Positions 1,274-50,681 of a stretch of 63,105 nucleotides of DNA are shown here, in pieces. The position numbers were made by a program, and so were the translations under genes. The stretch is from NCBI GenBank assembly GCA_947456185.1, contig CANGPW010000003.1, positions 1 through 63,105 on the forward strand. Reading direction: 5' to 3'. Source of the DNA: Bacteroidota bacterium (GTDB lineage Bacteria > Bacteroidota > Bacteroidia > UKL13-3). The notes beneath the pieces were generated by a model, which was not told the DNA's origin, did not search any database, and was given only the letters and a program-made list of their open reading frames with translations. Each line of letters begins with the position of its first letter. The first letter of the stretch is position 1.

Positions 1274-1660
1274 TTATTTACCTTTCACCTGATTATCGGT
1301 ATATTTACTAGGGCATTTTAATAATATTTTGCTTGCTTCAAAATGGTCACCATCCATTTTACCAATGATTACAATTTTTTCGCTGCGTTCAAAATCAGCT
1401 GGTTCAGGAGCATGATACACCACTTTTTGTTCTACACCTTTATCGTCAATCAAATAAAAAGTAAAATAGTTTGCATCTTTTTTAGGGTCAAAATACTTTT
1501 CTTTTGTTTTGTTTAATGTGCCAACAATATGAAATTCTTTACCTAGATTTTCAGCTGCCACACCAAAGTTTTCGTAACTACTTGCATCGCTGGTAGTACT
1601 TATAATTGCACCTATTGCTAAAGCAATTAGCACAATTATGATGATACTTGTTTTTTTCAT
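1274..1660 (-). CDS. ccmE: Cytochrome c maturation heme chaperone CcmE (CxxxY variant)
   Basis: N-terminal TM anchor, OB-fold-like core, C-terminal LLKCPSKY; follows ccmC/ccmD. Start moved to ATG 1660 (ORF track: 1693). Confidence 0.85.
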   Translation of the reverse strand: MKKTSIIIIVLIALAIGAIISTTSDASSYENFGVAAENLGKEFHIVGTLNKTKEKYFDPKKDANYFTFYLIDDKGVEQKVVYHAPEPADFERSEKIVIIGKMDGDHFEASKILLKCPSKYTDNQVKGK

Positions 1661-1664
1661 GGTG

Positions 1665-1847
1665 TTATTTTTTAATCTTGTTATTTTTTTCAATTTTACG
1701 TAACCTCAAATCCATCATCACTAAATAACCACATAATAATGTAAAAATAATAGCAATTACTATTACAACTACATCCATTTTGTTACCCCCAAACATATCG
1801 GGTAACTGACTTGAATCTATTTTTGCTTGGTTTAAAATTAATTTCAT
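1665..1847 (-). CDS. ccmD: CcmD-family small membrane protein
   Basis: Single TM helix followed by a basic tail (DLRLRKIEK), located between ccmC and ccmE. Confidence 0.65.
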   Translation of the reverse strand: MKLILNQAKIDSSQLPDMFGGNKMDVVVIVIAIIFTLLCGYLVMMDLRLRKIEKNNKIKK

Positions 1848-1854
1848 TATTAAA

Positions 1855-2508
1855 TTAGTTGCTTAATTTTTTCATTCTTTTGCCAATATCGACTATCCAA
1901 AAACCTATGAATATCCAACCTAATACGGCAGGATAAAACACCATTCTTAATCTACTATCTAAATCGTAACTGTTAAAGCCAGGATTTCCGCCATTTCCTG
2001 GGTGTAATGAATCTGTTAATCGAGGTAAAATAAAAACCAAAACTACAAATATTGGGAAACAAAATATATTAAATACAGCCGATATGCGCGCACGTTTTTC
2101 TTCATCTACTATACTGCTTCGCAATACAAAATAAGCTGCGTATAATAGCATGGCAACGGCAGCCGCATTTAATTTAGGATCGGGAGTCCAATAAGCGCCC
2201 CAAGTATTTTTAGCCCAAATCATTCCGGTACATAATCCTGCTACTCCAAAAAGCATGGCAGTATTTGCAAAAATTGCTGCTTCTGCATCAAATGTTAGGT
2301 TAACAGAATTCTTATTATTTAAAGTTTGAATTGATTTAATAAACGAAAATAACAAAAGTGCAATCATGGTAAACCACATGGGCACATGAAAAAATAAATT
2401 CCGAATGCTATTCTCTAATATTGGTAAATTAGGAATTGCTCCAAATAAACCTTGAACAATTGAATAAAGCACCAAAATAAATCCTCCTATTTTCCACCAT
2501 TTAATCAT
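1855..2508 (-). CDS. ccmC: Cytochrome c biogenesis heme-handling membrane protein CcmC
   Basis: FFHVP histidine and WWD-type motif (GMIWAKNTWGAYWTPDPKL); multiple TM helices. Confidence 0.85.
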   Translation of the reverse strand: MIKWWKIGGFILVLYSIVQGLFGAIPNLPILENSIRNLFFHVPMWFTMIALLLFSFIKSIQTLNNKNSVNLTFDAEAAIFANTAMLFGVAGLCTGMIWAKNTWGAYWTPDPKLNAAAVAMLLYAAYFVLRSSIVDEEKRARISAVFNIFCFPIFVVLVFILPRLTDSLHPGNGGNPGFNSYDLDSRLRMVFYPAVLGWIFIGFWIVDIGKRMKKLSN

Positions 2509-2512
2509 GCTG

Positions 2513-2520
2513 CGAAAGTA
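2513..2520 (-). promoter_or_regulatory. Bacteroidota -7 promoter element (TACTTTCG) 4 nt upstream of the ccmC ATG
   Basis: Matches a TAnnTTTG-type consensus with one mismatch. Confidence 0.5.
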
Positions 2521-2705
2521 TTAAAAACAGTTTGATATATTTTAAAGTATGATAATATTTAAAGTTTGTTATAGTTATAGTTGAATTACAGTCAAATAGA
2601 AAACAATTTTGAAGTATTTGAAGTTTTTTTTAGTTTTTTTTTGAATACTACTTGTATTTGAGAATAAAAAACAGATATTTGCAGCCCTTATAAAAGAAAA
2701 AAGAG

Positions 2706-2936
2706 ATGAGAGTTTGTGATTTAACTGGTAAAAAAGCATTGAAAGGTAATAACGTTTCGCATTCAAATGCAAAAACTAAAAGACGTTTTTATCCTAATTT
2801 ACAAGATAAAAAGTTTTTTATTCCTGAAGATGGTCAGTGGATTACTTTACGCGTAAGCACAAAGGCAATCAAGACTATTTCGAAAAAAGGAATAACAAAA
2901 GTGTTAAACGATTTTGTTAAATACGGCAAAATTTAA
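2706..2936 (+). CDS. rpmB: 50S ribosomal protein L28
   Basis: MRVCDLTGKK...GNNVSHSNAKTKRRFYPNLQ signature. Confidence 0.97.
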   Translation: MRVCDLTGKKALKGNNVSHSNAKTKRRFYPNLQDKKFFIPEDGQWITLRVSTKAIKTISKKGITKVLNDFVKYGKI

Positions 2937-2953
2937 TTTAGGAGATTCAAGAA

Positions 2954-3136
2954 ATGGCAAAAAGAGGAAATAGAATACAAGTGATTATGGAATGTACTGA
3001 ACATAAAAATTCAGGCATGCCAGGAACAAGCCGTTACATCACTACAAAAAATAAAAAAAATACAACTGAGCGTTTAGAATTGAAAAAATACAATCCAATT
3101 TTAAAACGTAAAACTGTACATAAAGAAATTAAGTAA
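2954..3136 (+). CDS. rpmG: 50S ribosomal protein L33
   Basis: [17 protein letters not shown]...ELKKYNP...HKEIK. Confidence 0.97.
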
Positions 3137-3166
3137 TTAACCCTTAAACAAAGAGGAATTTAAACA

Positions 3167-3316
3167 ATGGCAAAGAAAGTAGTTGCAACGCTAAAAACAG
3201 GATCTGGAAAAGATTTCGCTAAAATTTATCGTGCTGTTAAAAACAAAAAAGGAGCTTACTCTTTTAAATCTCTAATTATACCTAACGAGAATGTTAAGGC
3301 TGCTTTCAAAGCATAA
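3167..3316 (+). CDS. DUF4295-family small protein (49 aa, absent from the ORF track)
   Basis: Hand translation MAKKVVATLKTGSGKDFAKIYRAVKNKKGAYSFKSLIIPNENVKAAFKA; usual position between rpmG and ftsY in Bacteroidota. Confidence 0.85.
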   Translation: MAKKVVATLKTGSGKDFAKIYRAVKNKKGAYSFKSLIIPNENVKAAFKA

Positions 3317-3340
3317 TTACATTTTTAATATTTAACGATG

Positions 3341-3373
3341 AAAAGCATTCTGAAGATAATCAGAATGCTTTTT
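3341..3373 (+). terminator. Intrinsic terminator after rpmB-rpmG-DUF4295
   Basis: AAAAGCATTCTGA-AGATAAT-CAGAATGCTTTT hairpin. Confidence 0.8.
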
Positions 3374-3451
3374 GTGTTTTTATAAACAAAATTTTTTATT
3401 CAAGTATTTTTATTTTGTTCATTGAATAAATAACATATAAAGTAAATTACA

Positions 3452-4402
3452 ATGGGAATTTTTAATTTTTTCAGCAAAGAAAAAAAAGAAAAACTAGATC
3501 TAGGTTTAGAGAAAACTAAAACTAGTTTATTCGATAAAATTAGCAAAGCTATTGCGGGTAAATCTTCAATTGATGACGATTTTTTAGATAAATTAGAAGA
3601 AATTTTAGTGACTTCTGACGTTGGAATTGAAACTACCTTGAAAATTATTGACAGATTACAAAAACGTGTTGCCAACGATAAATACGTTGGAACTTCCGAT
3701 TTAAATTTAATGCTAAAAGAAGAAATTGCTTTATTATTAGACGAAAATGACAACGAAAATTTAAGCAGTTTTGAAAATTTACCCGGCCAAAAACCTTATG
3801 TAATTATGGTTGTTGGCGTAAATGGAGTCGGAAAAACTACCACCATTGGTAAATTAGCAAACCAGTTTAAAAAAGCGGGTAAAAAAGTAGTTTTAGGTGC
3901 TGGTGATACTTTTAGAGCAGCAGCTGTAGAGCAATTAAAAATTTGGGGAAGCAGAAATGACGTTCATGTGGTAAGCCACGGAATGAACACTGATCCTGCT
4001 TCTGTTGCTTTTGATGCGGTGAAATATGCAAAAGAAAATGATGCCGATGTTTGTATCATTGACACCGCTGGACGATTACATAATAAAATTGGTTTGATGG
4101 ATGAACTTTCAAAAATTAAACGCGTAATGGGAAAAGTGCAAGAAGGAACTCCTCATGAAATTTTATTGGTTTTAGATGCAAGCACTGGTCAAAATGCTTT
4201 TGAACAAGCCAAACATTTTACCGCTGCAACCGAAGTAAATGCTTTAGCTTTAACAAAATTGGATGGAACTGCCAAAGGTGGTGTGGTTATTGGTATTGCC
4301 GACCAATTTAAAATTCCAGTAAAATACATTGGCGTTGGTGAAGGAATAGACGATTTACAAGTATTTAACAAAAAGGAATTTGTAGATTCTTTGTTTAAGT
4401 AG
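3452..4402 (+). CDS. ftsY: Signal recognition particle receptor FtsY
   Basis: GVNGVGKTTTIGKLA, DTFRAAA, DTAGR and TKLDGTAKGG motifs. Confidence 0.97.
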   Translation: MGIFNFFSKEKKEKLDLGLEKTKTSLFDKISKAIAGKSSIDDDFLDKLEEILVTSDVGIETTLKIIDRLQKRVANDKYVGTSDLNLMLKEEIALLLDENDNENLSSFENLPGQKPYVIMVVGVNGVGKTTTIGKLANQFKKAGKKVVLGAGDTFRAAAVEQLKIWGSRNDVHVVSHGMNTDPASVAFDAVKYAKENDADVCIIDTAGRLHNKIGLMDELSKIKRVMGKVQEGTPHEILLVLDASTGQNAFEQAKHFTAATEVNALALTKLDGTAKGGVVIGIADQFKIPVKYIGVGEGIDDLQVFNKKEFVDSLFK

Positions 4403-10958: not shown

Positions 10959-10995
10959 TTTGAATGTTGCCCTTCGACTCCGCTCAGGGTGACAA
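10959..10995 (-). repeat. REP-like element, inverted copy of 1184-1220
   Basis: Reverse complement TTGTCACCCTGAGCGGAGTCGAAGGGCAACATTCAAA. Confidence 0.85.
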
Positions 10996-11064
10996 TAATT
11001 TTTAAATCATTAAATTCCGTTGGATAAAGCACAACGGCTATTCATTGTTAGTATTTCACTTTTT

Positions 11065-11160
11065 GAATTTCGTTCCAATTCATTGGAATTTTTTTTTGAA
11101 TTTACTTATCAATTCATCCAACATTTAATCCCGATTTATCGGGACAAAATCCAACATTTT
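11065..11160. repeat. Heptamer arrays carrying two 16-nt mini-hairpins after the uvrB stop
   Basis: GAATTTC-G-TTCCAATTCATTGGAA-TT on the + strand. On the - strand: AAATGTT GGATTTT-G-TCCCGATAAATCGGGA-TT-AAATGTT GGATGAA. Confidence 0.75.
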
Positions 11161-13194
11161 CTACGCAATTTCTTCCATTTTCTTCTGTAAAGCAAACATC
11201 TCATCTCTTAAACGAGCAGCTTCCATAAAGTCCATATCCTTGGCAGCTTTTTGCATCCGTTTTTGAGTTTCGCCAATCATTTTTTCTAATTTTGGTTTAC
11301 TTAAATATTCTAAAATTGGATCAGCGGCTAAGTTCAATTCTGTAGGCTCTATATAAGCTTTTGCTTCAGGTGCAAATATTTGTTTTGCATCTGCCATGCT
11401 AGTTTGTTTTAGAATTTCCTCACGCGTTCGTTTAATAGTTTTAGGCGTTATGCTATGCAATGTATTATAAGCTATTTGTTTTTCACGTCTTCTATCCGTT
11501 TCATCAATGGTACGTTGCATGCTAGCAGTCATTCTATCGGCATACATAATTACTTTGCCTCTTTCGTTTCTTGCAGCTCTTCCTATGGTTTGTGTCAATG
11601 ATTTATCATTGCGTAAAAATCCTTCTTTATCTGCATCCATAATGGCTACCAAACTTACTTCCGGTAAATCTAATCCTTCGCGCAATAAATTTACGCCAAT
11701 TAATACATCAAAAACGCCTAATCGCAAATCTCTTAATATTTCTACTCGATCTAAAGTTTTTACCTCACTGTGAATATATCGGCATTTAATGTTAAGCTTG
11801 CCCATGTATTTACTTAACTCTTCCGCCATACGTTTGGTTAAAGTGGTTACCAATATTCGGTCACCCATTTTGATGCGTTCATCTATTTCATCTAGTAAAT
11901 CATCTACTTGATTTAAACTTGGACGCACTTCTATGGTTGGGTCAATTAATCCTGTTGGTCTAATAATTTGTTCCACTACCACCCCTTCCGTTTTTCTAAT
12001 TTCATAATCAGCAGGCGTAGCACTTACATAAATAGTTTGACCAATCATGTTTTCAAATTCATTGAATTGAAGCGGTCTGTTATCCATTGCCGATGGCAAC
12101 CTGAAACCATATTCTACTAAGTTTTCTTTACGGCTTCTATCGCCTCCATACATGGCTCGCACTTGCGGAATACTCACATGACTTTCGTCTACCATGAGTA
12201 CAAAATCTTTTGGAAAATAATCTAAAATGCAGAAAGGCCTGTCACCAGGTTTGCGTTTATCCATGTATCTGCTATAGTTTTCTATGCCGCTGCAATAACC
12301 TAACTCGCGCATCATTTCTAAATCAAAATTGGTGCGTTCTTCCAAACGTTTTGCTTCTATGTGTTTTCCAATAGATTTAAAATATTCAATTTGCGCTACC
12401 AAGTCATCTTGAATATCGCGCATGGCTTCATGCAATTGTTCTTTTGGAGTAACATAAATATTAGCTGGAAAAATGGCACAATCTTGCACCGATTCTTGTT
12501 TTTTTCCACTGATGGGGTCAATGATATCAATGCTTTCAATTTCATTTCCAAAAAATGAAATGCGAAAAGCAAAATCTGCATAAGCAGGAAAAACATCTAA
12601 CACATCACCTTTTACCCTAAAATTTCCTCTGTTAAAATCTGCAGTTGTTCTGCTATACAACGAATCAACTAAGGCATATAAAACAGTATTTCTAACAATG
12701 CTTTGCCCTACGTGCAATCTTACAACACTGCTTTCATAATCTTTCGGATTTCCTGCACCATAAATGCAACTAACGGAAGCAATTACCAATACATCTCTTC
12801 GGCCAGATATTAAAGCTGAAGTAGTAGAAAGTCTCATTTTTTCTATCTCTTCATTAATGGCCATGTCTTTTTCTATATAAGTATTGCTAGACGGAATAAA
12901 TGCTTCGGGCTGATAATAATCGTAATAAGAAACAAAATATTCGATTCTGTTCTCAGGGAAAAACTGTTTGAATTCACTGTAAAGCTGCGCCACCAAAGTT
13001 TTATTATGACTTAAAATTAAAGTAGGCCTTTGCACTTGTGCAATCACATTGGCCATGGTAAAAGTTTTACCACTTCCTGTAACTCCCAATAATACTTGAC
13101 TCTTATCGCCTCTGTTCAATCCTTCTACCAATGATTTGATAGCACTTGGTTGATCGCCAGTTGGCACATACTCGCTTGTTAACTTAAATTCCAC
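11161..13194 (-). CDS. uvrB: Excinuclease ABC subunit B
   Basis: GVTGSGKT, YYDYYQPEA, DESH, GRAARN and a C-terminal UVR domain; GTG start. Confidence 0.98.
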   Translation of the reverse strand: MEFKLTSEYVPTGDQPSAIKSLVEGLNRGDKSQVLLGVTGSGKTFTMANVIAQVQRPTLILSHNKTLVAQLYSEFKQFFPENRIEYFVSYYDYYQPEAFIPSSNTYIEKDMAINEEIEKMRLSTTSALISGRRDVLVIASVSCIYGAGNPKDYESSVVRLHVGQSIVRNTVLYALVDSLYSRTTADFNRGNFRVKGDVLDVFPAYADFAFRISFFGNEIESIDIIDPISGKKQESVQDCAIFPANIYVTPKEQLHEAMRDIQDDLVAQIEYFKSIGKHIEAKRLEERTNFDLEMMRELGYCSGIENYSRYMDKRKPGDRPFCILDYFPKDFVLMVDESHVSIPQVRAMYGGDRSRKENLVEYGFRLPSAMDNRPLQFNEFENMIGQTIYVSATPADYEIRKTEGVVVEQIIRPTGLIDPTIEVRPSLNQVDDLLDEIDERIKMGDRILVTTLTKRMAEELSKYMGKLNIKCRYIHSEVKTLDRVEILRDLRLGVFDVLIGVNLLREGLDLPEVSLVAIMDADKEGFLRNDKSLTQTIGRAARNERGKVIMYADRMTASMQRTIDETDRRREKQIAYNTLHSITPKTIKRTREEILKQTSMADAKQIFAPEAKAYIEPTELNLAADPILEYLSKPKLEKMIGETQKRMQKAAKDMDFMEAARLRDEMFALQKKMEEIA

Positions 13195-20855: not shown

Positions 20856-22409
20856 ATGGCAAAAGATAAACCAAGCATTCCAAAAGGTACCCGCGATTTT
20901 GGCCCAGAAGAAGTAGCCAAACGAAAATATATTTTAAATACCATTGAAAAAGTTTTTATAAAATATGGCTTTATGCCAATAGAAACGCCTACTATGGAAA
21001 ACCTGATTACCCTTACTGGAAAATATGGTGATGAAGGTGATAAGCTGCTTTTTAAAGTACTGAATAGTGGAGATGCGTTTAAAGATTTTACACTTGAAGA
21101 TATTGAATTAATTTTATCCCAAGCGAAGGAAAATGAAAAGAATATTTTAAAAAAAGAAATTCAAGAAAAAGCAAAATCGCAACAACCACAAATAAGAAAT
21201 GAGTTGGTTCATCAACAATCTTCAAAAACTCTTGAAAATATTATAATTGAAACGAAATCAAGTCCTGAAAGAATTGCTGATGATGTAACTAAATTGATGC
21301 GAAAAGCATCCGAAAAAGGCCTTCGTTACGATTTAACCGTACCATTTGCGCGTTACGTGGTAATGAATAGAAATGAGATAACTTTTCCTTTCAAACGCTA
21401 TCAAATGCAACCTGTTTGGCGAGCTGACAGACCACAAAAAGGACGTTACCGCGAGTTTTGGCAATGCGATGCCGATGTTGTTGGAAGCGATAGTTTGTTA
21501 CACGAACTAGATTTGATAAACATTTATAACGAAGTGTTTAAGTGTTTGGGAATAGCTGTAGAAATAAAAATAAATAACAGAAAAATATTAGCAGGAATAG
21601 CAGAAGTTGTAAAAGGAATTGAACACCTTAATACCATTGCGGTAGCAATAGATAAACTTGATAAAATAGGCAAAGATGGAGTAAGTAAAGAGTTAACATC
21701 ACTTAATTTTACAGAAATAGAAATTGCTACTCTTTTTGATATCATTACCATTCAAGGAACCGAGGCAGAAATGCTAGCCACTTTAAATATAAAATTACAA
21801 AACTCAACCGAAGGTTTAATTGGAATTGATGAATTGAGTTTTATTTTTAAACAAATTAATGCTGTATCTAATCAACAAATAAATCTAAAAACCGACTTCT
21901 CTTTGGCACGAGGTTTATCGTATTACACGGGTTGTATTTTTGAGGTTGTAGCCACTGGGGGTTCGTTAAGAAGCAGTATTGGCGGTGGTGGAAGGTATGA
22001 CAACTTAACTGGAAATTTTGGATTAGATGGCGTTTCGGGTGTTGGAATCTCGTTTGGATTAGATAGAATATACGATGTAATTGATGAACTAAAATTGTTC
22101 CCTGAAACATTATCGCAAGGTAGCAGCAAAGTGTTAATTTGTGCCAATGATTCTATTGAAAATATTGAGCTTGCTTCAGTATTAAAAATATTGAGTAAAC
22201 TTAGAAATGAAGGCATTGCATCGGAAATTTATTCTGAAAAAATAAATGTAAAAAAACCTTTAGAAAAACCCATTAAATATGCAAGCAGCAAAAAAATTGC
22301 ATTTGCTCTAATTTATACCGAAAACGAAAGTTTAAAACTTAAAAACCTAACATCTGGATTTCAAGAGGAATTGACTATTGAAGAGATTATTGAAAGATTG
22401 AAAGATTAA
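20856..22409 (+). CDS. hisS: Histidine--tRNA ligase with a long internal insertion
   Basis: PKGTRDF, LRYDLTVP, RADRPQKGRYREFWQCD, LARGLSYYTG and GGGRYD motifs. Confidence 0.96.
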   Translation: MAKDKPSIPKGTRDFGPEEVAKRKYILNTIEKVFIKYGFMPIETPTMENLITLTGKYGDEGDKLLFKVLNSGDAFKDFTLEDIELILSQAKENEKNILKKEIQEKAKSQQPQIRNELVHQQSSKTLENIIIETKSSPERIADDVTKLMRKASEKGLRYDLTVPFARYVVMNRNEITFPFKRYQMQPVWRADRPQKGRYREFWQCDADVVGSDSLLHELDLINIYNEVFKCLGIAVEIKINNRKILAGIAEVVKGIEHLNTIAVAIDKLDKIGKDGVSKELTSLNFTEIEIATLFDIITIQGTEAEMLATLNIKLQNSTEGLIGIDELSFIFKQINAVSNQQINLKTDFSLARGLSYYTGCIFEVVATGGSLRSSIGGGGRYDNLTGNFGLDGVSGVGISFGLDRIYDVIDELKLFPETLSQGSSKVLICANDSIENIELASVLKILSKLRNEGIASEIYSEKINVKKPLEKPIKYASSKKIAFALIYTENESLKLKNLTSGFQEELTIEEIIERLKD

Positions 22410-22439
22410 AAGATTACAAGGTTGGAAGATTAGAAAATT
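22392..22439 (+). repeat. Octamer tandem array (RRAAGATT) overlapping the hisS stop
   Basis: GAAAGATT GAAAGATT AAAAGATT ACAAGGTT GGAAGATT AGAAAATT. Confidence 0.8.
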
Positions 22440-22493
22440 ACAATAAATTGGTCTTTAATCTTGTCGAAACGATTTCCTTATGAAGCTTTGCAA

Positions 22494-22529: not shown

Positions 22530-24020
22530 ATGTACGAAATAACTACCCAAATAAGCATTGAAGAAATTCAAGATATTATTGCTAATAACAAGCAAATTAA
22601 ATTAAGTGAAGATGCCAAAACTCGCATAGTAAATTGCAGAACTTATTTAGACGAAAAATTAGCCAATAACGATCAACCAATTTATGGTATCAATACAGGT
22701 TTTGGTTCTTTGCATAGCACCAAAATAAGTAACGATAATTTAGAACAATTGCAAGAAAATTTGTTACTAAGTCATGCTTGCGGAATAGGTGATTTAGTGC
22801 CACATGAAATTATAAAAATCATGTTATTACTAAAGGTTCAATCCTTGTCTTATGGCCATTCTGCTGCGCAATTAGATACAGTTGAAAGATTGATTTATTT
22901 TTTTAATAACAATATTTTACCGGTAGTTTTTGAATTAGGTTCTTTAGGTGCCAGTGGCGATTTAGCTCCATTAGCTCACTTAAGTTTACCGCTTATTGGC
23001 GAAGGAAATATTTATGTTAAAGAAAGTTCGAAGTTCGAAATTCGAAGTTCGAAGTTCATATTGGAAGAACATAAACTAAATCCTATAAAACTTAAATCGA
23101 AAGAGGGATTAGCATTAATAAATGGTACTCAATTTATGAGTGCTTATGGTGTATATTGTTTGATAAAAGCCAACCAACTTTTAAACAAAACCGACTTTAT
23201 TGCAAGCATTTCTATTGATGCTTTTGACTGTAGGTTAGAGCCTTTTCATCATTTATTACACGATGTTCGTCCGCATAAAGGACAAATAGCAACTGCTAAA
23301 AAAATATTGGAAAATTTAGCCGATTCCGAAATTGCAAAGCAACATAAATTGCAAGTTCAAGATCAATATGCGTTCAGGTGTATTCCGCAAGTGCACGGTG
23401 CAAGTAAAGATGCCATTGAACATATCAATAAAATATTTACTATCGAAATAAATGCTGTTACTGATAATCCAAATGTATTTGCTGAGGAAGATTTGATACT
23501 TTCGGGTGGGAATTTCCATGGACAAACATTGGCCATTCATTTAGATTTTTTAGCCATTGCTTTGGCTGAATTAGGCAGTATTTCTGAACGTAGAACTTAT
23601 CAATTAATTTCGGGACAAAGGAATTTACCCGCATTTTTGGTAAGTAATCCTGGTTTAAATTCTGGCTTTATGATTCCACAATACACTGCTGCAAGTATTG
23701 TGAGTCAAAACAAGCAATTATGTACGCCTGCTTCTGTTGATTCAATAGTGAGCAGTAACGGCCAAGAAGACCATGTAAGTATGGGTGCAAATGCTGCAAC
23801 AAAATGCTTAAGAGTAGTTAAAAATTTAGAGCGAATTGTGGCCATAGAATTACTAAACGCAAGTCAAGCTTTGGAGTTCAGACGTCCATTAAAAAGTGCT
23901 TCAAAAATTGAAACATATATAGCTGCCTACCGCAAATTAGTTCCATTTGTAACCAAAGATAGATTCCTACACGATGATATTGAAAACAGTGTGCTGTTTT
24001 TGAATAATACAGCTGTTTAA
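22530..24020 (+). CDS. hutH: Histidine ammonia-lyase
   Basis: YGINTGFG, GASGDL (MIO), KEGLALINGTQ, QDQYAFRC, GGNFHG and QEDHVSMG motifs. Confidence 0.97.
   Translation: MYEITTQISIEEIQDIIANNKQIKLSEDAKTRIVNCRTYLDEKLANNDQPIYGINTGFGSLHSTKISNDNLEQLQENLLLSHACGIGDLVPHEIIKIMLLLKVQSLSYGHSAAQLDTVERLIYFFNNNILPVVFELGSLGASGDLAPLAHLSLPLIGEGNIYVKESSKFEIRSSKFILEEHKLNPIKLKSKEGLALINGTQFMSAYGVYCLIKANQLLNKTDFIASISIDAFDCRLEPFHHLLHDVRPHKGQIATAKKILENLADSEIAKQHKLQVQDQYAFRCIPQVHGASKDAIEHINKIFTIEINAVTDNPNVFAEEDLILSGGNFHGQTLAIHLDFLAIALAELGSISERRTYQLISGQRNLPAFLVSNPGLNSGFMIPQYTAASIVSQNKQLCTPASVDSIVSSNGQEDHVSMGANAATKCLRVVKNLERIVAIELLNASQALEFRRPLKSASKIETYIAAYRKLVPFVTKDRFLHDDIENSVLFLNNTAV
23024..23058 (+). repeat. Intragenic heptamer tandem array in hutH
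   Basis: AAGTTCG AAGTTCG AAATTCG AAGTTCG AAGTTCA. Confidence 0.85.
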
Positions 24021-46095: not shown

Positions 46096-46758
46096 CTAAT
46101 CATTACATTCCATTAGCAACAAATTTCCACTGTCAAATTTTATTTCTATCAATCCATCTGTTTCGGTTTTATTACTGCTGCTCGTTCTATCGCCTAAATG
46201 CAAATCTTCGTTTTGCAAATTATAAGTTAATCCTTTTGTATGTAAACCAAATACGCTTCCCAATGGAATCAATGAAATATTTTGATTGGCTGGATACCAT
46301 TTGGTGAATTGATTGGGCAAATTAAAAATCCTTGAATGGTCATCGAGCATTACAATGGTAATTTGGTCTTTATATTTGGCTAAAGTACTTAAATTATTGA
46401 TGTGATGGTCGGCACGTTTTCCAGTAGCCCACAAAATATTTACAGCTTTATGGCCTTTGGCAATTAAAAAATCTAATCCTTTTTCCAAATCCGTTTTGTT
46501 TTGATCAGGTGTATGCACCACTTCAACAGGTTGCTGATTAGCTAATAATTCGTCCCAATTTTCTGCTTTGTCAAAATCACCGAGCACAATATCGAGTTTA
46601 ATTCCAAGTTCCAAAACTCTGTGAATGGCACCATCTAAAACCATTACCACCGGACTCCATTCCAGTAATTGTCCCATTAATTCAAAACTACAACTTTGCC
46701 CATTGGCAATAATTAATGCGGGTTCTTGTTCATCGCGAACGATATGGTGGCTTGACAT
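46096..46758 (-). CDS. thiN: Thiamine diphosphokinase
   Basis: LIIANG, LDGA, GDFD, DQNKTDLEKGL and GKRADH motifs. Confidence 0.9.
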   Translation of the reverse strand: MSSHHIVRDEQEPALIIANGQSCSFELMGQLLEWSPVVMVLDGAIHRVLELGIKLDIVLGDFDKAENWDELLANQQPVEVVHTPDQNKTDLEKGLDFLIAKGHKAVNILWATGKRADHHINNLSTLAKYKDQITIVMLDDHSRIFNLPNQFTKWYPANQNISLIPLGSVFGLHTKGLTYNLQNEDLHLGDRTSSSNKTETDGLIEIKFDSGNLLLMECND

Positions 46759-46767
46759 TTATTAATT

Positions 46768-46815
46768 GAAAGACTAAAAGATTGAAAGATTACAAGATTA
46801 CAAAATTAGAAGGTT
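46768..46815 (+). repeat. Octamer tandem array (RRAAGATT)
   Basis: GAAAGACT AAAAGATT GAAAGATT ACAAGATT ACAAAATT AGAAGGTT. Confidence 0.8.
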
Positions 46816-46946
46816 ATGTACTGAAAAAGTTTTTATTACTGTGTAAAAATTTTATTGCCAGTTGCCTTAAGCCAGAGGCCATTTATAAAAACAAATTTTT
46901 TAATTAAGAATCTTACTTACATATTTGCTGCAAATAAAATTTAAAA

Positions 46947-49923: not shown

Positions 49924-49946
49924 AAACCTATCTTTAAAAGTCATTG

Positions 49947-49993
49947 AATTAGTTTAAATTATTCCTTAAAGTTAGGAATGGTTTAAACTAATT
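49947..49993. terminator. Long hairpin between convergent genes, overlapping the tsaB stop
   Basis: AATTAGTTTAAA..ATTCCT / AGGAAT..TTTAAACTAATT. Confidence 0.6.
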
Positions 49994-50681
49994 TTTTTGC
50001 AACAGTTCCTACAAAATCTTTTAAATAAAAAGGTTCAAAATAAGCCACATCTTCAAACTCTTTTTTATCAAAGGCTGCTTGTGCCAATGATGAAATGAAA
50101 CTGGCATTACAAACATATCCAATTTCGAATTTCGTCCCGCTAAAGCGGGATTGAGTTTCGAATTTACCAATGCATTTTTCCGCCCCATTTCCAATAAAAA
50201 CTATTTCATTTTGAAGTAATTCTTCTTGGAACGAATGTTCATCTATAATCTTGGCTTGAGTGGGTAAAATTTCGGCTAATTGATTATTAAATAAAGCGCA
50301 ATAAACTTCCATTCGCCTCGCATCAATCATGGGGCAAATCAATCCTTTGTAATTTCGGTGATTCGTTAAATATCCGTTGGCTAAACTTTGTAAAGTATTA
50401 ATGGCAATCATTGGTATTTGCAAAGCATAACAATATCCTTTTACCGATGAAACACCCACACGCAAACCAGTATAACTTCCTGGTCCTTTACTCACCGCCA
50501 CAGCATTTAAATCTTGTAAAGTAACACCTGCAATGTCTAAAGCTTTTTGTACTAAAATATGTAATTGCGAAGCATGGTTATTGCCTAATTTATCCTCGGC
50601 AAGCGAAATGGTTTGACCATCTTTTGCAATAGCAACCGAACAAATTTCAGTAGCAGTTTCTATACAAAGAATCAATGCCAT
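49983..50681 (-). CDS. tsaB: tRNA t6A biosynthesis protein TsaB
   Basis: IETATEICS, GPGSYTGLRVG, PMIDARRMEVY and FEPFYLKDF motifs. Confidence 0.95.
   Translation of the reverse strand: MALILCIETATEICSVAIAKDGQTISLAEDKLGNNHASQLHILVQKALDIAGVTLQDLNAVAVSKGPGSYTGLRVGVSSVKGYCYALQIPMIAINTLQSLANGYLTNHRNYKGLICPMIDARRMEVYCALFNNQLAEILPTQAKIIDEHSFQEELLQNEIVFIGNGAEKCIGKFETQSRFSGTKFEIGYVCNASFISSLAQAAFDKKEFEDVAYFEPFYLKDFVGTVAKKLV
50121..50167 (+). repeat. Intragenic heptamer array plus mini-hairpin module in tsaB
   Basis: AATTTC GAATTTC-G-TCCCGCTAAAGCGGGA-TT-GAGTTTC GAATTTAC. Confidence 0.85.

Follow-up and report, generated by a model that had tools for sequence, protein, structure and literature searches.

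How does a short, hairpin-bearing repeat of the intergenic type come to lie in frame within an essential gene, and what, if anything, does it do there? The question is raised by a stretch of 63,105 nucleotides (hereafter the window; positions 1 to 63,105 of contig CANGPW010000003.1, assembly GCA_947456185.1) from a Bacteroidota bacterium of the lineage UKL13-3, whose genome (hereafter the window genome) is a metagenome-assembled genome (MAG) of 127 contigs, 2.6 Mb and 31% GC. Within this window a repeat module of 45 nt, at 50121-50165, is written into tsaB. Our preferred reading, to which we assign a probability of about 0.72, is that the module is a lineage-specific, non-coding small palindromic repeat that is tolerated, and passively translated, in a loop of TsaB. 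It would be translated merely as a loop four residues longer, with no benefit to TsaB, while selection would purge those insertions that break a reading frame or a fold, so that in-frame, stop-free copies in loops remain.

The module and its host gene

By words, the forward strand at 50121-50167 is AATTTCG AATTTCG TCCCGC TAAA GCGGGA TTG AGTTTCG AATTT AC, or AATTTCGAATTTCG TCCCGC TAAA GCGGGA TTGAGTTTCGAATTT AC: heptamer 'words' form two arms that surround a perfect hairpin, and the whole is a two-tier palindrome (Table 1). The array words (RATTTYG) and the TAAA loop stand on the forward strand of the window, antisense to tsaB, and the module's coding-strand translation is K173-FETQSRFSGTKFE-I187, with the reading frame unbroken. 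The original prediction, made from the letters of the window alone, had placed a repeat array inside tsaB at 50121-50167 with its frame intact; this proved exact to the base, the encoded segment being residues 173-187. The hairpin adds 12 nt (four residues) over the 228-residue alleles described below, and in the tsaB frame the module holds no stop codon and has a length that is a multiple of three. The predicted fold of the entire module is a two-tier hairpin of -19.9 kcal/mol (z-score -1.7), in which the TTCGAA of arm 1 base-pairs with the TTCGAA of arm 2. At its ends the module has imperfect inverted repeats of 9 nt, and the word CGAAATT matches its own reverse complement at 6 of 7 positions (both by eye). 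Tandem Repeats Finder (TRF) makes no call on the window copy, because the hairpin breaks up the imperfect units, and a covariance search with Rfam 15 over the module gave no match (one chance-level hit elsewhere, E 0.4, fell far under the gathering score). A role for the module as an internal terminator of the convergent gene was set aside: a separate hairpin with a T-run lies between tsaB and that gene, at 49940-49990, and the tsaB module would therefore not be needed for termination.

The host open reading frame (ORF) matches the TsaB equivalog TIGR03725 at 159 bits (cut-off 69.3) as well as PF00814, and Foldseek with the tsaB model returned YeaZ of E. coli, Salmonella and P. aeruginosa (chains of 1okj, 4ydu and 5br9; TM-score 0.74-0.78). 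The gene is single-copy in the window genome, with one match across the assembly. Invariant TsaB residues are retained on both sides of the module, including Phe185, whose codon is the TTC of the right-hand TTCGAA, and outside the loop the codon differences from relatives are more often synonymous than non-synonymous (22:14 to 59:26 in 9 of 11 comparisons; 59:48 and 55:51 in the two most distant, with L058 and L009). Given its single copy, the invariant residues kept and the synonymous excess, the host tsaB is to all appearances functional.

In the AlphaFold model of this TsaB (mean pLDDT 84) the module corresponds to a low-confidence loop, residues 171-180 (mean pLDDT 67), together with the short strand that follows it at 183-186, in the C-terminal domain. 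The site is a variable loop that leads from the G-N-G-A-x-K-C helix to the Phe185 strand, and it is here that the aligned TsaB proteins have their main internal differences in length. Its position at the protein surface is thus a prediction from a low-confidence stretch of the model, and not from a structure of the complex. The loop presumably stands apart from the interfaces with TsaD and TsaE, which we take, by analogy with the E. coli and Salmonella YgjD-YeaZ structures, to be formed via the N-terminal helices.

A 127-contig MAG is a source in which repeat-induced misassembly, or chimerism, could have put a spacer repeat into tsaB, and repeats do confuse assemblers. Logan contigs of four public runs from three studies were therefore compared with the window over 49950-50400. 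Two runs span 50018-50400 and a third 50059-50341, with 0 differences from the window, and the contig of the fourth strain has nine differing positions, all of them outside the module. The identical tsaB allele is also present in the species-representative MAG of another lake (L010) and in other separately assembled MAGs and contigs, and the frame is intact in every tsaB allele. This agreement among independent assemblies and contigs, across several runs, studies and lakes, disposes of the misassembly against which the original prediction had cautioned, and we give an artefact of this kind practically no weight. RNA runs of the same samples contained none of the tsaB stretch.

Allelic states of the tsaB loop

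Orthologues of tsaB from metagenomes and MAGs were aligned and their DNA was read at the loop. A 16-residue loop, K/Q-x-x-I-x3-N/Q-A-x-F-x4, is found in distant and moderately related TsaB proteins, those of most species of the same genus among them. In orthologues ~73-94% identical to the window protein this canonical loop is replaced by a heptamer array, and among those at least 85% identical four loop states (F-, F+, R- and R+; Table 1) occur at the one site. The peptide SRFSG, encoded by the hairpin, would have been expected in distant orthologues had it been an old part of the protein; it is absent from all orthologues below ~78% identity, where the canonical 16-residue loop reads K-x-x-I-x3-N-A-x-F. 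The alignment thus upholds the original prediction of an intergenic-type repeat in coding DNA at a length-variable loop, as does the family of spacer copies described in the next section.

Hairpin-less relatives carry the heptamer GATTTTG or TATTTTG in place of the 19-nt block TCCCGCTAAAGCGGGATTG, and the hairpin-less allele is a plain array of five to six heptamer units, which TRF calls in the R- allele of L049 (period 7, score 57). A single 12-nt indel as the link between F+ and F- was rejected, since on sequence comparison none converts one allele into the other. Hairpins in decay are also found: L005 and L011 have TCCCGT TTAA GCAGGA, and other proteins read SSFSG or SHFSG. Among the remaining variants are an array that encodes KFEFKKSKFEN, a 231-residue form of TsaB without the array (KE[TI]ISNNEQGMSNFE[GY]NY), and an apparent chimeric loop (KETILNHEQGMAKFEIGY).

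The two orientations are recognizable as inverted versions of one another. When inverted, the 45-nt F module agrees with R at 35-37 of 45 positions in register, and the flanks alone at 22 of 29, as against 12 of 29 when compared directly; in BLAST, an R-type 64-mer matches tsaB of the window genome and of its nearest relative genome (G069) on the non-gene strand, at 78% over 45 nt (E 9e-4 per genome). Where F and R genes differ, they do so only within the 60 nt that separate the conserved TGC and TGT codons. Once inverted, the F module departs from the R module at 17-22% of positions, against ~4% for the surrounding genes; F and R are therefore old alleles that have been passed around, not the states of a fast switch.

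How such alleles are passed around is shown by a maximum-likelihood tree of tsaB built without the loop, in which loop types are intermixed (L052, with F+, is sister to L002, with R+, at support 98/88), and by one pair of sequences in particular. L007 and L036 show no differences for 532 nt upstream and ~100 nt downstream of a divergent patch of ~95 nt (gene positions 501-593), which has ~40 differing positions and a length difference of 9 nt, and which spans the loop into the conserved codons beyond it. By these comparisons, loop alleles are exchanged between related lineages by short-patch homologous recombination, and the intermixing on the tree is due at least partly to this process. Because such patches were found, independent origins were not counted from the tree.

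It might be argued from the same data that the module flips often within the population, as a phase-variable invertible segment: both orientations occur in tree-sister genes, as above, and G069 alone holds both, in an intact F+ tsaB and an R- fragment. The divergence of F and R after inversion, however, is that of old alleles, recombination patches explain the mixing on the tree, and the contigs of the four Logan runs show one module orientation only, although contigs conceal minority forms. To our knowledge, 45 nt is also far under the size of recombinase-driven invertible segments. A programmed inversion is accordingly very improbable in our estimation.

The fragment in G069 is itself part of an unusual arrangement. 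At this locus (L088; contig C193 of G069, 1633-3454) a 3' tsaB fragment sits together with a membrane ORF of 472 aa, which has no Pfam match, between a gene with a type IX secretion system (T9SS) tail and the intact F+ tsaB. The fragment comprises residues ~94-232, with two stops upstream and a hairpin-less loop in the opposite orientation (NKNFGFRILDFGFEIL). The arrangement has the appearance of an insertion by which the 3' part of tsaB was either duplicated or displaced.

Table 1. Window coordinates of tsaB, the repeat module and its parts, and the two modules at uvrB, with the four allelic states of the tsaB loop.
Feature	Position in window	Strand or orientation	Sequence, reading or evidence	Protein length	Found in
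tsaB host gene	49983..50681	-	ORF list, TIGR03725, PF00814, Foldseek	232 aa (232 codons)	
45-nt repeat module ('F+' allele)	50121..50165	-	frame reading KFETQSRFSGTKFEI, residues 173-187		
Perfect 6-bp GC-rich hairpin	50135..50150	.	TCCCGC-TAAA-GCGGGA; encodes S178-R-F-S-G182		
Arm 1	50121..50134	.	words AATTTCG AATTTCG, palindrome TTCGAA within; encodes T183-K-F-E-I187 including invariant Phe185		
Arm 2	50151..50165	.	TTG AGTTTCG AATTT, two more words; encodes K173-F-E-T-Q177		
F-type sister copy 3' of uvrB	11063..11105	-	intergenic; AAATTCAAAAAAAAA TTCCAATGAATTGGAA CGAAATTCAAAAAG		
Second module, directly after uvrB stop	11114..11160	-	intergenic; ATGTTGGAT words flanking TCCCGATAAATCGGGA		
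Allele F-		antisense to gene	AATTTCG AATTTCG GATTTTG AGTTTCG AATTTAC	228 aa	L003, L009, L039
Allele F+		antisense to gene	F- with middle word replaced by 19-nt block TCCCGCTAAAGCGGGATTG	232 aa	window, L010
Allele R-		sense	AATTTTG GATTTCG GATTTTG GATTTTG GATTTGA AATTTTG	228 aa	L049
Allele R+		sense	R- with TCCCGCTTTTGCGGGATCG in the middle	232 aa	L002, L013, L016, L033

A dispersed family of hairpins and its copies in other genes

A scan of the whole window genome for hairpins of the form CCCGN-N3-6-NCGGG found 42. Their consensus is tCCCGAT-NNNN-ATCGGGa, and the ~40 copies are almost all intergenic, embedded in short tandem words that are specific to each site (CATACTT, ATTGCCT, CAACATT, GATTAAAA and others). 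An element is 42-47 nt long, with arms of 7-nt words and a 6-bp GC hairpin, and copies often lie right after stop codons. In 16 of 40 cases the hairpin is straddled by an exact direct repeat of 7 nt or more, compared to 8% when flanks are paired from different sites, and in five cases direct repeats of 10 nt abut the 16-nt hairpin. Hairpins within long stop-to-stop frames either precede the start, fall at the very C-terminus or belong to frames judged spurious; the tsaB copy is the only clear hairpin internal to a conserved ORF among the ~40, if the one at position 20558 of contig C33 is left aside. At that site (C33:20540-20600) TCACGATAAGTCGGGA lies amid GCAATGA/GCAATAA words in an open frame of 542 codons (…WLEGNELTISREAMSNKQLAIS…), and it may be another in-frame hairpin.

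The repeat family is specific to this lineage. In a search of 119 genomes of the taxonomic family, the core pattern TCCCGMTNNNKCGGGA gave 57 strand-hits in the window genome, 36-87 in eight other genus members and 0-10 in most other genera, and the same pattern reversed, used as a control, gave 0 in the window genome and 0-1 per genome overall. An nhmmer profile of the sister copies matches the tsaB module at E 1.6e-13. The module is thus a member of a dispersed family of repeats, one that has undergone expansion here.

The behaviour of the family outside coding DNA is best seen at the spacer of uvrB (window 11060-11165; orthologous loci L094, L109 and L113), which holds two hairpin modules both in the window genome and in G070. 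The F-type copy at 11063-11105 (nhmmer E 5e-5) has arms identical to those of the tsaB module at 21 of 26 positions, and its neighbour at 11114-11160 has the same architecture with a different word and an 11-nt direct repeat across the hairpin. In G066 both modules are word arrays without hairpins. Hairpin and array are thus interchanged at this spacer too, and the interchange is therefore a property of the family, not of tsaB. The F-type copy of G067 reads TTCCGATTAATCGGAA where the window genome has TTCCAATGAATTGGAA, a compensatory change in which both sides of one base pair are altered (TTCCGAT..ATCGGAA vs TTCCAAT..ATTGGAA).

The tsaB module has counterparts in other genes, found by a genus-wide search with a 25-nt core at <=3 mismatches and two 64-mers. 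In an M1-family peptidase (PF01433) of G064 and G066 the module reads FPIQNPIPQKRDKIQNL, adds 11 residues, and is identical to the R+ module of tsaB at 44 of 47 positions; the orthologue in the window genome is empty (GTKNF-----------EFKNIVID). In metH of G069 an F-type module lies in the activation domain (PF02965), reads VKFEKESRYIGTKFEG and again adds 11 residues, in the same frame as in tsaB and with arms identical to those of the tsaB module at 23 of 26 positions; the window genome is empty at this site as well (DDVII-----------SNNGQPTT). The metH product thereby carries KFEKESRYIGTKFEG, a peptide from a sister copy of the sort for which the original prediction had proposed to search the proteome. 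A further copy (IQIRNAIPNNRDEIRNLL) is held by DegT aminotransferases of G062 and G073, and spacer copies occur in several genomes, including G062, G067 and G070, several of them directly after stop codons. Across the host proteins the hairpin is read in three frames, as SRxSG, RPAxAG or IPxxRD, which argues against a conserved peptide function.

The window holds other repeats as well. Arrays with a period of 8 nt (GATTGAAA, GATTAAAA, GATTACAA and others) occupy two spacers 24 kb apart, at 22381-22448 and 46749-46832, and their word family is distinct from that of tsaB. A 44-nt repeat, TTTGTCACCCTGAGCGGAGTCGAAGGGCAATATT, is present at 1177-1220 and 10959-11002 in inverted orientation, in two spacers and with 93% identity; a similar copy stands at the orthologous locus of G070, and the start of another (TTGTCACC) is seen at that of G067. 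At 23024-23058 five tandem heptamers, GTTCGAA GTTCGAA ATTCGAA GTTCGAA GTTCATA, encode SSKFEIRSSKF in frame; they share the TTCGAA word with the arms in tsaB and have no hairpin.

Origin of the module and likeness to known repeats

Several observations weigh against the preferred reading. The full F-type sub-family has only ~4 copies in the window genome, where the nhmmer profile finds just ~3 weak sister copies, so that there is no obvious donor in this genome; a 24-mer of the module is unique there at up to 3 mismatches. At the metH and M1-peptidase sites 6-9 native bases have given way to the module with no clean target duplication, and in tsaB it likewise replaces native bases, with no target-site duplication or clean insertion boundary seen. 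The F- allele has the length of the canonical loop, to which it is identical at 29 of 48 positions (hand count), and the two share F-E-x2-N-x2-F-E; some of the array may therefore be native sequence with no more than a resemblance to the arms. The R+ hairpins are perfect in 4 of 4 sequences, and considering also the compensatory change in the uvrB spacer, some selection on the stem, or its self-correction, is conceivable. Neutrality of the passenger is something we infer. The comparison is based on contigs rather than raw reads, in which minority orientations within the population are invisible. Finally, examination of the Y1 transposase and DUF559 genes identified no mobilising enzyme for the family.

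The original prediction had also proposed a search for KFE-KFE peptides. The module does encode this pattern, but part of it may be native, because the right-hand TTCGAA supplies the codons of the invariant Phe185-Glu186 and an orthologue of 72% identity has VFE...VFE 21 nt apart. Such native VFE..VFE codons could be the starting point of an origin that is entirely local: slippage would turn them into a heptamer array, and template switching at the quasi-palindrome would make the hairpin and later invert the segment, with no need for a dispersed element. The canonical length of F- fits this well, as does a graded series of loops (KGVFESPNAVFETNY to NGKFEYPNSNFEFGY to NGKFETQNPKFEIGY); with the near-self-complementary CGAAATT and the 9-nt imperfect inverted ends, a template-switch inversion is mechanistically easy, and the inversion of spacers in coding genes has precedent (PMC8604942, PMC5941160). 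Slippage of GATTTTG words, however, cannot yield a GC-rich hairpin of 16 nt, of which the family has dozens of copies per genome. Modules of 42-47 nt, complete with arms and 83-94% identical, lie in metH, the M1 peptidase, DegT and spacers, while the metH and M1 sites of the window genome are empty, and a recent flip in place fails to explain R, given the distance between inverted F and R relative to that between their genes. A purely local origin is largely refuted by the sister copies, and we consider it improbable.

We are equally sceptical that the hairpin or the extra residues are selected for a function, be it an RNA structure for expression or mRNA decay, a DNA site, or an adaptive loop, with the orientations as alternative states. 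The perfect stems of R+, the compensatory change of CG to CA/TG in an orthologous spacer copy, the two-tier fold and its predicted stability are what such selection might leave, and spacer copies often follow stop codons, like the repetitive extragenic palindromes (REPs) that stabilise mRNA 3' ends (PMC3733652). Yet the hairpin is missing in many close relatives and decaying in others (TCCCGT..GCAGGA, SSFSG, SHFSG), canonical TsaB proteins do without it, its fold has a z-score of just -1.7 and no Rfam match, and it is translated in three frames in different proteins.

If the module is, as we prefer, a tolerated repeat, it would have entered when a copy of it took the place of AT-rich, word-like DNA, leaving no clean target duplication, by microhomology-guided templated repair or template switching, or through a trans-acting enzyme. 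Replacement without duplication, together with the word-like sequence at the empty M1-peptidase site (TTTCGAATTT), suggests microhomology-guided templated copying; at the empty metH site no microhomology is evident. The original prediction spoke of a repeat-writing process that targeted coding DNA at a surface loop. An in-frame copy in a loop is indeed there; targeting does not follow from it, as random entry with subsequent selection explains the same outcome equally. For the flipped allele we lean slightly towards an R-type sister copy that was acquired separately or that converted the site, because R+ is so nearly identical to the M1-peptidase copy. Second, and less likely, is inversion in place, bounded by the 9-nt imperfect inverted repeats at the module's ends, though template switching offers a precedent for it in coding genes (PMC8604942, PMC5941160).

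A more far-reaching possibility, which we regard as tentative and on balance unlikely, is that these hairpins are an undescribed form of ultra-small mobile DNA, in which a GC hairpin of 16-19 nt carries or creates direct repeats of 7-10 nt. Cycles of entry and loss would then build the word arrays of 7-8 nt found in spacers and would likewise rewrite protein loops, in frame and in either orientation (tsaB, metH, M1 peptidase, DegT), and the whole would require an enzyme or repair pathway other than a REP-associated tyrosine transposase (RAYT) or the DUF559 nuclease.

Both of these enzymes were considered and rejected as partners of the tsaB-type hairpin. Two Y1-transposase genes (PF01797) of RAYT size are present in the window genome (C5:26341-26682 and C59:5710-6054). 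Other hairpins stand on either side of them (CCACGACC..GGTCGTGG and GCGTCTCT..GAGACTGC), Y1_Tnp genes occur in 19 of 19 genomes of the genus, including three with 0 hairpins of the tsaB-module type, and there is no co-variation with hairpin counts across the genus. The Y1 genes have hairpin repeats of their own (CCACGACCTTTAGGTCGTGG, and four copies of GCGTCTCTNNGAGACTGC) and are probably separate REP-RAYT systems. The single DUF559 gene, read in the window genome's copy only, encodes a Vsr-like nuclease in 129 codons (C62:8923-9310) and is bounded by unrelated repeats: it sits between two direct repeats of ~115 nt (C62:8800-9430) that are rich in CCCTCC/GGAGGG hairpins, in a cassette-like arrangement between genes.

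In-frame palindromic repeats have been described in other phyla (PMC3733652, PMC10969869), and the closest parallels are the Rickettsia palindromic elements (RPEs; RPE-1 to RPE-10) of Ogata et al. As summarised in those two papers, RPEs are, like the tsaB module, a lineage-specific palindromic family found in spacers and in frame in unrelated housekeeping genes, where they insert in loops and the host proteins stay functional. By the same summaries, RPEs have ~100-150 bp and one conserved peptide in one frame, whereas the module has 42-47 nt and at least three frames. The host of RPEs is an obligate intracellular alphaproteobacterium and not a free-living freshwater member of the Bacteroidota, and, unlike RPEs, the tsaB module occurs in both orientations at one site and in hairpin-less word-array states.

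Intragenic REPs (Di Nocera et al. 2013, PMC3733652) are similar in being GC-rich stem-loops of 20-40 nt in many copies, mostly 3' of genes, with few read through in ORFs, and ~40 copies of the 16-nt core in the window genome, nearly all extragenic (reversed control 0), fit that description. In contrast to REPs, the module has arms of tandem 7-nt words that vary by sub-family, there are no REP dimers or alternation like that of bacterial interspersed mosaic elements (BIMEs) at the tsaB site, and no GTAG or CGTC tag was seen beside the stem when the flanks of 40 copies were inspected by eye, with no formal count. The REP doublets forming hairpins (REPINs) that are paired with RAYTs (PMC3116915, PMC3337134) are likewise non-autonomous short palindromes that multiply within a lineage, and RAYT-size Y1 genes do exist here; unlike in REPIN/RAYT systems, these genes carry other hairpins and are equally present in hairpin-free members of the genus.

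Miniature inverted-repeat transposable elements, or MITEs, with in-frame copies, such as RU/ERIC (PMC2759123, PMC2229807), are small non-coding mobile sequences that are occasionally translated within genes. MITEs measure 70-300 bp, end in terminal inverted repeats and are flanked by target-site duplications; the element in tsaB has ~45 nt and replaces native bases without a clean duplication. On these points the observations are mixed: the module ends are imperfect inverted repeats of 9 nt and many hairpins have direct repeats beside them, but filled and empty metH and M1 sites differ by replacement lacking clean duplication. Template-switch inversion (PMC8604942, PMC5941160, PMC5453318) flips a short segment bounded by inverted repeats and keeps length and frame, but covers at most the F/R dimorphism, and neither the dispersed family nor the likeness of R to a copy in another gene. 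The module, then, behaves like RPEs and intragenic REPs and is a member of neither family, as it lacks their defining tags and a cognate RAYT. In searches of the literature we found no description of such elements in Bacteroidota.

Working genes colonised in frame by palindromic repeats are known chiefly from Rickettsia and from a few bacteria rich in REPs; here the phenomenon is encountered in an abundant, free-living freshwater member of the Bacteroidota, and with a much smaller element. A single site of an essential gene displays, at the level of codons, empty, filled, decayed and flipped states, an informative natural allelic series that also shows how coding DNA is entered (native bases are replaced, with no clean duplication) and that is a ready test of how much sequence variation the TsaB loop tolerates. 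The module is at the same time a population marker that moves by short-patch recombination. Annotation and phylogenomic pipelines should be able to recognise modules of this kind, which give rise to lineage-specific indels and to odd peptides (SRFSG, RPAFAG, IPxxRD) in otherwise conserved proteins.

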